Source: Escherichia coli | Lineage (GTDB): Bacteria > Pseudomonadota > Gammaproteobacteria > Enterobacterales > Enterobacteriaceae | DNA length: 64,000 bases | Strand: one strand, 5' to 3' | NCBI RefSeq assembly: GCF_016026235.1 | Contig: NZ_CP065613.1 | Shown here: positions 2,571 to 61,048 of the stretch, one piece after another | Numbering within the stretch: the first letter of the stretch is position 1 | How the letters are laid out: every line of letters begins with the position of its first letter | The notes under the pieces: generated by a model | What the model was told of the DNA's origin: nothing | The model's database searches: none | The model's input: only the letters and a program-made list of their open reading frames with translations | Translations under genes and position numbers: made by a program

Positions 2571-2659
2571 GGTGTTATCCCTGGTATGAATTGATAAGAA
2601 AAAACCCCGGAGCACGCCCCGGGGTTTTCGGTACAAATACAGTCATCTGATGCGGGAAC

Positions 2660-6621: not shown

Positions 6622-8055
6622 ATGCGATTTTCCAGATTTATCATCGGATTGACCAGCTGTATAGCGTTTAGTGTTCAGGCCGCAAATGTTGATGAGTACA
6701 TTACTCAACTCCCCGCTGGTGCCAACCTTGCCCTGATGGTGCAAAAAGTCGGCGCGTCGGCCCCCGCTATTGATTACCACAGTCAGCAGATGGCGCTGCC
6801 CGCCAGTACGCAGAAAGTGATTACTGCGCTGGCGGCGTTGATTCAACTCGGCCCCGATTTTCGTTTCACCACGACGCTTGAAACCAAAGGCAATGTGGAA
6901 AACGGCGTACTTAAGGGTGACTTAGTGGCGCGATTTGGTGCCGATCCGACGTTAAAACGTCAGGATATTCGCAATATGGTCGCGACTTTGAAAAAATCTG
7001 GCGTCAACCAAATTGATGGCAATGTGTTAATAGATACCTCCATTTTCGCCAGCCACGATAAAGCCCCCGGCTGGCCATGGAATGACATGACACAATGCTT
7101 TAGCGCTCCGCCTGCCGCCGCCATAGTTGACCGCAACTGTTTCTCCGTCTCGCTCTACAGTGCCCCAAAACCTGGTGATATGGCTTTTATACGCGTGGCA
7201 TCTTATTACCCCGTTACGATGTTCAGCCAGGTACGCACCCTCCCCCGTGGTTCTGCCGAAGCGCAATACTGCGAACTGGATGTCGTACCAGGCGACCTGA
7301 ACCGCTTTACGCTAACGGGATGCCTGCCGCAACGTTCTGAGCCGCTCCCGTTGGCTTTTGCCGTGCAGGATGGAGCCAGCTATGCCGGGGCAATTCTGAA
7401 AGATGAGTTAAAACAGGCAGGTATCACCTGGAGCGGAACACTGCTGCGCCAGACTCAGGTTAACGAACCTGGAACGGTAGTTGCCAGTAAACAGTCGGCC
7501 CCGTTGCACGATCTGCTTAAGATTATGCTGAAAAAGTCGGACAACATGATCGCCGATACGGTTTTCCGCATGATAGGCCATGCGCGCTTCAATGTGCCTG
7601 GAACATGGCGGGCCGGGTCGGACGCCGTGCGTCAGATCCTGCGCCAGCAAGCCGGTGTCGATATTGGAAACACCATTATTGCCGATGGTTCAGGGCTTTC
7701 GCGGCATAACCTGATTGCCCCCGCCACCATGATGCAGGTGCTGCAATACATTGCCCAACACGACAATGAACTTAACTTTATCTCCATGCTGCCGCTGGCG
7801 GGCTATGACGGCTCTTTGCAGTACCGTGCAGGTCTGCATCAGGCGGGCGTGGATGGAAAAGTCTCAGCGAAAACCGGTTCGTTGCAGGGGGTATATAACC
7901 TGGCGGGATTCATTACCACAGCGAGCGGGCAACGAATGGCGTTTGTACAATATCTTTCTGGCTATGCAGTAGAACCGGCGGATCAGCGTAATCGCCGTAT
8001 TCCGTTAGTGCGTTTTGAAAGCCGTTTGTATAAAGATATTTATCAGAACAATTAG
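6622..8055 (+). CDS. dacB: D-alanyl-D-alanine carboxypeptidase/endopeptidase DacB (PBP4)
   Basis: ORF track 477 aa, MRFSRFIIGLTSCIAFSVQA signal peptide and STQK active-site motif; TAG stop at 8053..8055. Confidence 0.95.
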   Translation: MRFSRFIIGLTSCIAFSVQAANVDEYITQLPAGANLALMVQKVGASAPAIDYHSQQMALPASTQKVITALAALIQLGPDFRFTTTLETKGNVENGVLKGDLVARFGADPTLKRQDIRNMVATLKKSGVNQIDGNVLIDTSIFASHDKAPGWPWNDMTQCFSAPPAAAIVDRNCFSVSLYSAPKPGDMAFIRVASYYPVTMFSQVRTLPRGSAEAQYCELDVVPGDLNRFTLTGCLPQRSEPLPLAFAVQDGASYAGAILKDELKQAGITWSGTLLRQTQVNEPGTVVASKQSAPLHDLLKIMLKKSDNMIADTVFRMIGHARFNVPGTWRAGSDAVRQILRQQAGVDIGNTIIADGSGLSRHNLIAPATMMQVLQYIAQHDNELNFISMLPLAGYDGSLQYRAGLHQAGVDGKVSAKTGSLQGVYNLAGFITTASGQRMAFVQYLSGYAVEPADQRNRRIPLVRFESRLYKDIYQNN

Positions 8056-8069
8056 TCAAAAAGAAACCC

Positions 8070-8082
8070 CGGCACATGGCCG
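8070..8082. repeat. Target-site duplication, left copy (cggcacatggccg), flanking IS4
   Basis: Identical 13-mer directly abuts both IS4 termini, at 8070..8082 and 9508..9520. Confidence 0.85.
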
Positions 8083-9507
8083 TAATGCCAGTCAGTTAAG
8101 CAACTGACTGGCTCTTTTTCGGGGCTGTGGGGTATTTCCAGGGCCTCTCCTTTACCACTCTCGGGAAGGCCCTTCCCCTTCTCGTCGGTAATTTCACAAG
8201 TTGTCCCATACTTGCAAGATCGCGCATCAGCTCCGGTATACGTCCCGGTGAAGCGCCCTGCAATGTCATCAGCATTCTCATCACCATTCCGCATGATTCT
8301 GAGAAACTCAGTTGATTCGGCCAGTAACCTTTCAGATGTTCCGCCATTTTAATCATCTGATATCTCACCAGATTATAAGCCAGTAAGACACCCCACAGCT
8401 CTTGCTCCACAAGCTCCGGCTTTTTACTTCTCAGCGTCAGCCTGCTCAGTTGCATCGTCTGTTTTATCTCCCTGTATCCCAGTTCGATTTCCCAGCGATG
8501 ACTGTACAGATCCGCCATTTCTCCTCCGGGGAAGCGCATGGCGTCCGTCATCGACGTCAGCAGATGGCAGACTTTTCCTTTGCGCGTCACGGTCAGCAGG
8601 CGGGCTGTCACTTCATTTCCCAGTCCCGGCCACTTTTTTCGTGCCTGCGGGCTGGTTTTCAGCTTCACCAGATGATCGCCTTTACCCAGTTTTCTGAGCT
8701 CTTCATATTGCGCTCCCTTTCTGAGAGGTATCATCCAGTGGCGGTGTTCTCCCGCCAGGCTCCAGGCATTTAACAGTCCCAGTGAGTAATAACCTTTATC
8801 CATTAACGTCAGAGTGTTATCGCCGGTTTGTTCTATAAGTTGCTCAGCAAGCTCATTTTCGCTGTTCTTCATCGTGCCGAAGGCTGCAGCCGTCAGCAGA
8901 TGGCTGGTCAGTTCCATCTGGCAGACCATTTTGACCTGCGGGTAGAGCGCCGGGTTCCCGGCATGTGTCTGGCGGGGAAGGCTGCATCGTTCTCTGGTGT
9001 ATCCGGTGTGCGCCAGAACACACCATCGATGGCCAGCAGGGTCAGGCCGCACCAGTGCGGATGCGGCGTGGCGTTATGCCAGAGCTGCGCTGTTTTCGTG
9101 AACACGCGGCGGACAGCCTCACTTCCCAGGCGCTGGCGGGCCTGAATAACGGCACTGGGGGCAACGAAGGGGCGATTGCCCGGCAGCATGATGTCCAGGC
9201 GATTCACAATCTGGTGAAGAGGTTCTTTACGCTCAAGCGCCATGCCAACAATACACCAGACCATCATTTCGAGGGGAAGACGGCGCTTGCGTAGCGTTAC
9301 AGTACCTGATTCGGCAAGGCAACGAGAGATGAGTTCGGGGTCGAGGTAATCCCCCAGAGAAGTCAGTGGGTTACGCAGAGAATCGTAACGGGATACCAGA
9401 TCAAGAGCCTGTCCAATGTGCATAAAAAAATCCGGAAACAAGTGAGCGTTTCCGGATTCTTACACAGCCACTGGATCGGTCAACTGATCCTTAACTGATC
9501 GGCATTA
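8083..9507 (-). mobile_element. Insertion sequence IS4 (IS4 family), 1425 bp, transposase gene disrupted
   Basis: Termini taatgccagtcagttaag at 8083..8100 and ttaactgatcggcatta at 9491..9507 are imperfect inverted repeats; internal ORFs translate to IS4 transposase InsG; flanked by a 13-bp direct repeat. Confidence 0.92.
8096..9423 (-). pseudogene. insG: IS4 transposase InsG, frameshifted: N-terminal part in one frame, remainder in another
   Basis: ORF 8908..9441 gives MHIGQALDLVSRYDSLRNPL...ENDAAFP then changes frame; ORF 8096..9052 continues [17 protein letters not shown]... to KKSQSVA; frames switch at a G4 run at 8974..8977 (C4 on the coding strand). Confidence 0.85.
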
Positions 9508-9520
9508 CGGCACATGGCCG
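9508..9520. repeat. Target-site duplication, right copy (cggcacatggccg), flanking IS4
   Basis: Identical to 8070..8082; removing the IS and one repeat copy restores the hairpin aaaaccccggc-acatg-gccggggtttt. Confidence 0.85.
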
Positions 9521-9532
9521 GGGTTTTGCTGA

Positions 9533-10720
<1,188 letters not shown>

Positions 10721-46413: not shown

Positions 46414-46792
46414 TCTGTAAGGTCAGTGTGATTAACATCATCAGTGACATCCTATCACAGGATTGAAAGTAGGGGAAAATGGCAGGGTTTTCTCTTTGTG
46501 CCTCATCATTACCATAATTAACGGAATAATTAACTATTGCGAAAAATTAATGTAACGCAGATAAAAACATCCCGATTGAATTATTTATAAGACTATTCAC
46601 GAGCATTATGAATATTATGAATGTGTTCTTACAAAATAATCATAAGCACATATTTTTTAATGAAAAATCACCTCACCTACAATTAAAAACACGACATCAG
46701 CACCATAAATAGACTTGCAAAAAATATAACATCATTGTTTTCAATCTGCCGTTGATGGGATTGACCGTTTTCTTTTGACACGGAGTTCAACA

Positions 46793-48160
46793 ATGTTCGG
46801 CATAATTATATCTGTCATCGTATTAATTACGATGGGCTATTTGATCCTGAAAAACTACAAACCTCAGGTGGTGCTGGCTGCCGCAGGTATCTTCCTGATG
46901 ATGTGCGGTGTCTGGTTAGGGTTCGGTGGTGTACTCGATCCCGCCAAAAGCAGCGGCTACTTGATCGTCGATATTTATAATGAAATCCTGCGCATGCTGT
47001 CCAACCGCATTGCCGGATTGGGGCTGTCGATTATGGCGGTGGGCGGTTATGCCCGCTACATGGAGCGCACAGGAGCCAGTCGCGCGATGGTGAGCTTGTT
47101 AAGCCGCCCGTTAAAACTCATTCGCTCGCCGTATATTATTCTGTCGGCAACTTACGTCATCGGCCAAATCATGGCGCAGTTTATTACCAGCGCCTCCGGC
47201 CTGGGTATGTTGCTGATGGTCACCTTATTTCCGACACTGGTGAGTCTGGGAGTAAGCCGTCTCTCTGCGGTGGCGGTTATCGCAACCACAATGTCCATTG
47301 AGTGGGGGATTCTGGAAACGAACTCCATTTTTGCAGCCCAGGTCGCGGGAATGAAAATTGCCACTTACTTCTTCCACTACCAGCTTCCGGTCGCCTCTTG
47401 CGTCATTATCTCGGTGGCGATCTCCCACTTTTTCGTGCAACGCGCTTTTGACAAAAAAGATAAAAATATCAATCACGAACAGGCAGAGCAAAAAGCTCTC
47501 GATAATGTCCCGCCGCTCTATTACGCCATTTTACCTGTGATGCCGTTAATCCTGATGCTCGGCTCGCTATTCCTTGCCCACATCGGGCTGATGCAGTCAG
47601 AACTGCATCTGGTGGTGGTGATGTTACTGAGTTTGACGGTGACGATGTTTGTTGAGTTCTTCCGCAAGCATAACTTGCGCGAAACAATGGACGATGTGCA
47701 GGCGTTTTTTGACGGCATGGGTACGCAGTTTGCCAACGTCGTAACGCTGGTGGTCGCGGGTGAAATATTTGCGAAAGGCTTAACGACGATTGGCACTGTC
47801 GATGCGGTTATCAGGGGTGCGGAGCATTCTGGTCTGGGCGGTATTGGCGTGATGATTATTATGGCGCTGGTCATTGCCATTTGTGCCATTGTGATGGGCT
47901 CTGGCAATGCGCCGTTTATGTCATTTGCCAGTCTTATTCCGAATATCGCAGCCGGACTACATGTACCAGCGGTTGTAATGATTATGCCGATGCATTTTGC
48001 CACGACGCTAGCGCGCGCGGTTTCGCCGATTACTGCGGTGGTAGTCGTTACGTCAGGAATTGCAGGCGTTTCGCCTTTTGCGGTGGTGAAGCGGACAGCG
48101 ATCCCCATGGCAGTCGGTTTCGTGGTGAATATGATTGCCACAATCACGCTATTTTATTAA
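46793..48160 (+). CDS. dcuD: Putative C4-dicarboxylate transporter DcuD (DcuC family)
   Basis: ORF track 46775..48160; trimmed to the ATG giving [25 protein letters not shown]..., 455 aa. Confidence 0.92.
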
Positions 48161-60115: not shown

Positions 60116-61048
60116 TTAACCAAACTCACGCAGGCGATGGGCCATTTTACGGAAGAACGAATCCTGGCTTTCGTCGCGATCTTGTTTGCCAGTGACCACC
60201 ACTGTAGCAGTGGTGCCCGCAGGCCAGATGTTCTCTTGCTGGTTGTCGAGACGAATACGAACCGGAACACGTTGCGCCAAACGCACCCATTCAAGGTTAG
60301 AGTCGATGGTCGCCATCCCTTTGTCGTCACGCGTGCTGCTGGCGTTGGTGACCCCAGCGGCAACACTATCAACAGTCCCTTTCAGCACTTTGTTACTGCC
60401 AAGCGGCGTGATCTCTGCACGATACCCAGGGCGCACCCCTTCCAGCTTAGTTTCTTCCATATAGGCCAGTACATAGAAAGAGTTCTGTTTCACCAGCGCA
60501 ACCGCCGTTGATCCACGAGTAATAAACTCACCGGTATAGACATTGAGGTTGGTCACCCAGCCATCCGCTGGCGCGCGGATCACCGTGCGTTCAAGATCCA
60601 GTTTTGCCAGATCGCGGGTCGCCTGCGCTTTCGCTAACTGATGCAGAACAGTTTGTAGTACGTTGTTGGCCTAGTCGATCTCTTCGCGAGACATCACCTG
60701 CACACCGAGACGGTTACGACGTCCGGCCTCCTGGCGTTTCTCCTGTGCCAGTACCTGATAATAAGCAACATCGGCTTGCGCTTCCTCAAGCGCCTTTTGA
60801 TAGCGCGGCTGGTCGATGGTGAACAGTACCTGTCCTTTTTTCACCAGCTGGTTATCATGAACATTCACCTGGGTAATGAGTCCAGAAACGTCCGGCGCGA
60901 TCGCAACGACGTCAGCGCTAAAGCGCGCGTCACGCGTCCACGGGGATTCGGTGTAATAGACCCAGGCATTAAAAATTGCGATGAAGGCCAGAATGACTAA
61001 TACGACCGTGATGGCCGTACGGGAGAATTTTCTTATTAGTGTTTTCAC
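60116..61048 (-). pseudogene. aaeA: p-Hydroxybenzoic acid efflux pump membrane-fusion subunit AaeA, interrupted by an in-frame amber codon at codon 126
   Basis: The 933-nt frame (311 codons) is intact except for TAG at 60671..60673 on the minus strand; ORF track splits it into 60671..61048 ([26 protein letters not shown]...SREEID) and 60116..60583; same-frame translation between them reads [38 protein letters not shown]. Confidence 0.85.

Follow-up and report, generated by a model that had tools for sequence, protein, structure and literature searches.

The insertion sequence IS4 (insG) is the type element of the IS4 family and belongs to its subgroup IS4. A transposase made without frameshifting is given as a hallmark of this family, whose catalytic triad has the spacing D(60-110)D(100-150)E (PMC2266710). 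Members of subgroup IS4 produce target duplications of 10 to 13 bp, and strong target-arm specificity has been reported for them (PMC2266710). IS4 also belongs to a set of five insertion sequences whose copy numbers have risen in Shigella and in enteroinvasive E. coli (PMC7373316). Elements of the IS1 and IS3 families encode transposase differently, in two overlapping frames that are joined by a -1 shift, and in these families the two-ORF layout, an A-rich slippery motif, and a stimulatory structure are conserved.

Frameshifted IS4 pseudogenes have been deposited from E. coli 675SK2 (CYU58_RS23930) and, under names such as "putative transposase" or "IS4 orf," from Shigella sonnei 53G and S. 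flexneri strains K-304 and 2457T, and a truncated product of 177 or 171 amino acids is on record from several Shigella assemblies. Here we describe an IS4 copy in a 64,000-nucleotide stretch of an E. coli genome (contig NZ_CP065613.1 of assembly GCF_016026235.1; hereafter, the window) whose predicted product is the same as that truncated protein. The window copy shares with the type element its 18-bp terminal repeats, a target duplication in the 10- to 13-bp range, and an Nterm_IS4 plus DDE_Tnp_1 architecture; it differs in having a run of four C residues (C4) and two transposase frames where the type element has five (C5) and a single ORF. The previously deposited frameshifted copies lie at other loci and mostly carry further single-nucleotide polymorphisms (SNPs) or run deletions, whereas the window copy has just one lesion.

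RESULTS

An IS4 element lies between dacB and obgE

Positions 8083 to 9507 of the window, read on the minus strand, constitute a complete IS4 element of 1,425 bp, with the transposase in the minus sense. IS4 is present in 2,686 of 5,426 complete E. coli genomes by megablast, and 2,519 E. coli records have a single match that covers at least 80% of the element. Among the complete genomes listed, intact IS4 is 1,426 bp long and is 99.9% identical to the window element over 100% of its length. The first-pass annotation had recognized the element as IS4 and had taken it to be one base short of a canonical length of about 1,426 bp. Both statements are borne out by global pairwise and three-way alignment, in which 1,425 of 1,426 positions are the same as in an intact copy from E. 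coli CFSAN029787 (positions 1501 to 2926 of the sequence compared) and the remaining position is a single gap, a pattern that is not due to chance. CFSAN029787, which we take to be an enteroinvasive E. coli, carries the IS4 haplotype of the window on both its chromosome and a plasmid.

The ends of the element and its target site are as follows.

9490 to 9507, minus strand: left terminal inverted repeat (element positions 1 to 18), TAATGCCGATCAGTTAAG; same as in intact copies and found once in the window
8083 to 8100, minus strand: right terminal inverted repeat, reverse complement TAATGCCAGTCAGTTAAG; matches the left repeat at 16 of 18 positions and is the same as in intact copies
8070 to 8082, no strand: target-site duplication on the dacB side, CGGCACATGGCCG, 13 bp
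9508 to 9520, no strand: target-site duplication on the obgE side, CGGCACATGGCCG, 13 bp

The element ends carry the -AATR- signature of subgroup IS4 (PMC2266710, Table 1), and the 13-bp duplication falls within the range given above for the subgroup. The duplication was confirmed by two relatives that lack the element, in which the site is present unduplicated as AAACCCCGGCACATGGCCGGGGTTTT within the hairpin of a terminator shared by dacB and obgE. The two genes are convergent, with dacB at 6622 to 8055 on the plus strand and obgE (cgtA) at 9533 to 10705 on the minus strand. IS4 was absent from this site in all of the complete E. coli genomes searched.

Among 26 distinct IS4 sites with duplications of 11 to 13 bp, 17 had AAA in the left 10 bp and TTT in the right 10 bp, a flanking pattern that fits the target-arm specificity reported for subgroup IS4 (PMC2266710). 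Many of the 26 sites resemble GC-rich terminator hairpins, as the window site does (8060 to 8082 and 9508 to 9530).

At this locus (8056 to 8112 and 9424 to 9532), IS4 has interrupted the bidirectional hairpin that terminates dacB and obgE, and each end of IS4 has a terminator-like hairpin that faces inward:

8087 to 8112, plus strand: terminator-like hairpin at the right end of IS4, an 11-pair stem followed by TCTTTTT; faces transcription arriving from dacB
9424 to 9456, minus strand: strong hairpin TCCGGAAAC...GTTTCCGGA followed by a T7 run; inside IS4, directly upstream of the transposase ATG

A 56-nucleotide stretch that spans the second hairpin (9415 to 9470) has a folding energy of -23.5 kcal/mol (z = -6.3), and 0 of 200 shuffled sequences folded as well. 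A promoter-like site is found just upstream of the hairpin, at 9483 to 9456. The two hairpins may keep read-through transcription out of the transposase gene and could also stand in for the dacB/obgE terminator that was lost.

The transposase gene is split after codon 150

The sole difference between the window copy and intact IS4 is the loss of one C, from C5 to C4, at element positions 531 to 535. The first-pass annotation had located the missing base in this run and had proposed that the frame switches exactly where ...AAFP gives way to RQTH...; both ORFs read in this way, and no other position distinguishes the copy from intact IS4. It had also allowed that a reference IS4 might have the same run length and be read across this point in one frame, but the reference copies have C5 and a single frame. 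For the shortened run it had offered two readings, a defective copy unable to move by itself and a homopolymer sequencing error. The resulting features are listed below.

8974 to 8977, minus strand: contracted homopolymer at the frameshift site; G4 on the plus strand, C4 on the coding strand, C5 in intact IS4; after codon 150
8908 to 9423, minus strand: upstream ORF from the ATG, 171 amino acids, comprising 150 native residues (...ENDAAFP) and 21 out-of-frame residues, with the stop at 8908 to 8910
8096 to 8974, minus strand: downstream part of the transposase, native residues 151 to 442 (292 residues, RQTHAGNP...); the frame is open back to 9052

From an alternative TTG start, the upstream ORF extends over 8908 to 9441. 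In the downstream frame, RQTHAGNP... agrees exactly with the wild-type protein.

The intact transposase, of 442 amino acids, contains the Pfam domains Nterm_IS4 (residues 18 to 109) and DDE_Tnp_1 (residues 126 to 352) and scores 304 bits against NCBIfam NF033592. The upstream ORF of the window copy retains Nterm_IS4 (PF13006, residues 18 to 109, E = 7.6e-34), the catalytic residue D133, and the first 24 residues of the catalytic domain; it matches positions 3 to 131 of NF033592 with 105 bits, under the 115-bit cutoff. The downstream ORF matches positions 44 to 200 of DDE_Tnp_1 (PF01609) and positions 144 to 332 of NF033592 (173.7 bits). A sequence search for solved structures of relatives found none at E values up to 1.

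Counted in native residues, the spacings D133-D209 (76) and D209-E314 (105) fit the family definition, and the Y(2)R(3)E(6)K motif is fully encoded. D209, E314, and the YREK residues (Y307, R310, E314, and K321) all lie in the downstream frame, however, and not in that of D133. Because neither fragment holds the full catalytic triad, no active transposase can be made from the copy as written. Both of its ends are the same as those of intact copies, so mobilization in trans is possible in principle; the copy would be non-autonomous and would move only with transposase supplied by an intact IS4 elsewhere in the cell. The split after codon 150 departs from the single ORF of the IS4 family and makes the element a defective derivative of IS4 by descent, not a member of another family.

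Homopolymer lesions in other IS4 copies

The C4 allele is rare in complete genomes. It was the best match in 17 of the 2,564 E. coli records that hold the site, and in 2,546 of these the best copy was not C4, every such row listed being one base longer, that is, C5. At least four to five IS4 SNP backgrounds carry the allele, at separate sites that each show a target duplication of their own, and in E. coli 675SK2 (CYU58_RS23930) the same C5-to-C4 lesion was annotated as "frameshifted" by the NCBI pipeline. Among index blocks with the 171-amino-acid product, the longest contig was shorter than 10 kb in 152 of 200, and we took these 152 to be short-read assemblies.

Synthetic -1 alleles of the remaining long runs of IS4, used as control queries against complete E. 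coli genomes, recovered 3 records with a lesion at the C5 run at 347, 9 at the G5 run at 153, and 4 at the A6 run at 870, compared with 17 at 531. Six of the 17 genomes with the 531 lesion also carry a second IS4 run lesion, with the two lesions on a single copy in two of these genomes. The assemblies SCU-313, B-2207, FDAARGOS_536, ECOD1, 23CRST013, and ECO_2_R recur across runs. Exact matches to the truncated products in larger collections were distributed as follows.

531, -1: 131 contigs, from NCBI, JGI, and Logan (the 171-amino-acid product)
531, +1: 14 contigs
347, -1: 65 contigs, including an entry from S. flexneri 2457T (AAP17976.1)
347, +1: at least 1,000 contigs
153, -1: 106 contigs
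870, -1: 4 contigs
870, +1: 2 contigs

The 347 +1 change affects the C5 run at element positions 347 to 351 (window 9157 to 9161) and gives a truncated product of 101 amino acids in at least 1,000 E. coli contigs; it is absent from the window copy and appears to be a defective IS4 allele that has been inherited widely. We considered whether the run at 531 is a unique hot spot. This idea is weakly supported, as lesions in complete genomes fall at 531 more often than at any other run, yet lesions in other runs are as common or far commoner in the larger collection. Homopolymer frameshifts are the ordinary way in which IS4 copies decay or are misread.

Run deletions were also observed in Shigella. 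Some long Shigella contigs (the CP0268xx series, CP026839.1, PTES01000002.1, and others) have them at 152/153, 232, 336, 347, and 531, and the deletions are not the same from copy to copy within one genome or among orthologous copies on the virulence plasmid. They reflect either extensive genuine decay or homopolymer miscalls that recur systematically in repeats. Exact-protein look-ups (DacB, YrbG, NanT, and the 177-, 171-, 273-, and 277-amino-acid fragments) found no other occurrence of the lesion at dacB/obgE; they did find many frameshifted copies at other sites.

Comparison with close relatives

The insertion is shared by the sister assembly GCA_031665325.1, which differs from the window by 2 mismatches and 0 gaps in 20,978 bp. 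Its transposase is an intact product of 448 amino acids with both domains, an intactness that rests on the gene call of that assembly. Since the sister has an intact gene at the same insertion, the change in the window copy is either an artifact or very recent, having arisen within a divergence of ~1e-4 per site.

The closest complete genome, E. coli FDAARGOS_943, could be aligned with the window over ~62 kb, with 28 substitutions and 0 indels, and the alignment was interrupted by mobile elements only. This relative seems to be without IS4, as the element search matched just one place. The only other structural differences are insertions in FDAARGOS_943 that the window lacks. One is an ISEc60 between folP and ftsH (window 2609 to 2620), and at the other (window 46508 to 46811) an IS1 stands in place of 304 bp from the region between nanR and dcuC and the start of dcuC.

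Four of the 28 substitutions fall within 260 bp of aaeA, which encodes an efflux pump subunit (window 60116 to 61048, minus strand). In the window, aaeA has a premature stop at codon 126 (approximately 60671 to 60673), where FDAARGOS_943 encodes Gln, and this strain probably carries it as a pseudogene.

DISCUSSION

Known biology accounts fully for the window copy, which is a defective or a miscalled IS4 copy, of a kind that is already known. We give an even chance to the reading that one C was truly lost from the C5 tract after a complete IS4 had inserted, leaving a defective copy. On this reading, a complete IS4 would have inserted into the dacB/obgE terminator hairpin and would later have lost one C from the tract at codons 149 to 151, for which replication slippage would be the simplest route. 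Translation from the normal ATG would then yield a 171-amino-acid product in which the N-terminal IS4 domain and D133 are followed by 21 wrong residues, and D209, E314, and YREK, left in a separate and unlinked frame, would not contribute to an active transposase. Provided that the base call is real, the comparison with GCA_031665325.1 shows that the lesion is younger than the split from the sister strain, which bears the same insertion intact. It is speculation that the truncated fragment might bind IS4 ends or inhibit transposition.

A serious alternative, which we place somewhat short of an even chance, is that the missing base is a homopolymer miscall or polishing failure in a repeat and that the real copy is intact, autonomous, and 1,426 bp long. 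The full 448-amino-acid protein encoded at the orthologous insertion of the near-identical sister favors this explanation, as a real mutation must be very recent, and the rough expectation for one 5-base run over the divergence from the sister is ~1e-3. Multicopy insertion sequences are the hardest place in a genome to polish. It also counts toward a miscall that -1 lesions occur at every long IS4 run, with the same assemblies recurring across runs, and that each of the four related IS4 copies on one Shigella chromosome has lost bases from a different set of runs, which is the expected look of residual miscalls in repeats. Yet the window shows no other indel in ~62 kb relative to FDAARGOS_943 or in 21 kb relative to the sister, and this clean background argues against a generally error-prone assembly. 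With the closest complete relative apparently lacking IS4, the element may be low copy in this lineage, in which case polishing would be as good as in unique sequence. The C4 allele is, moreover, widespread, on several IS4 SNP backgrounds and in collections that include short-read assemblies, it was annotated as frameshifted in 675SK2, and the run-347 frameshift product was deposited for S. flexneri 2457T (AAP17976.1). The 2457T genome is presumably Sanger finished, so real run lesions of this type probably exist. Our rough estimate of the likelihood is ~1e-3 for real slippage and ~1e-3 for assembly error.

A broader reading would make the C5 tract at 531 to 535 a preferred and possibly reversible point of inactivation, with C4 elements forming non-autonomous lineages that multiply in Shigella and enteroinvasive E. 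coli, through mobilization in trans or a rare slip on C_CCC, and with the window copy as a fresh case. We regard this as very unlikely. Two frameshifted copies in the Shigella contig CP026810.1 share private SNPs and lie at separate sites with their own duplications, which could mean that the element moved after it had acquired the lesion. We considered these copies as proof of a heritable, transposed lesion; they are suggestive, but the case is undermined by the chromosome whose related copies differ in their run deletions, and the pattern is equally explained by mobilization in trans, gene conversion, or assembly error.

Scarcely credible is the remaining proposal, that the C4 allele is still expressed as an attenuated autonomous IS4, its frame restored by a -1 slip of peptidyl-tRNA-Pro on C_CCC or by polymerase stuttering. 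A proline tRNA that re-paired one base back on C4 (at the CCTTCCCCGCC site) would indeed give ...AAFP-RQTH..., the exact wild-type protein, and movement of the CP026810.1 copies after the lesion would agree with such expression. The great majority of IS4 copies, however, are single-ORF C5 elements, four bases are far too few for a polymerase to slip efficiently, and frameshifting is by definition foreign to the IS4 family (PMC2266710). The junction has no slippery heptamer of the form X_XXY_YYZ, and no unusual fold was detected in 91 nucleotides around and downstream of the site (z = -0.19 relative to shuffled sequences). The window copy resembles IS1 and IS3 elements in having two overlapping transposase frames that a -1 shift would join, but this layout is not conserved among IS4 copies and the heptamer and downstream structure of programmed frameshifting are lacking. 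We rejected programmed recoding for an allele found in so few records.

With either outcome, a true loss of one C or a miscall, what is known of IS4 is unchanged, and the importance of the finding is local only. An error would mean a residual homopolymer miscall inside a repeat of an otherwise clean assembly. If the missing base is genuine, the copy is not self-mobile, a single inactivating slippage event separates the strain from its sister, and the lesion would be of modest use as a marker in strain typing and in tallies of active copies of the insertion sequence.
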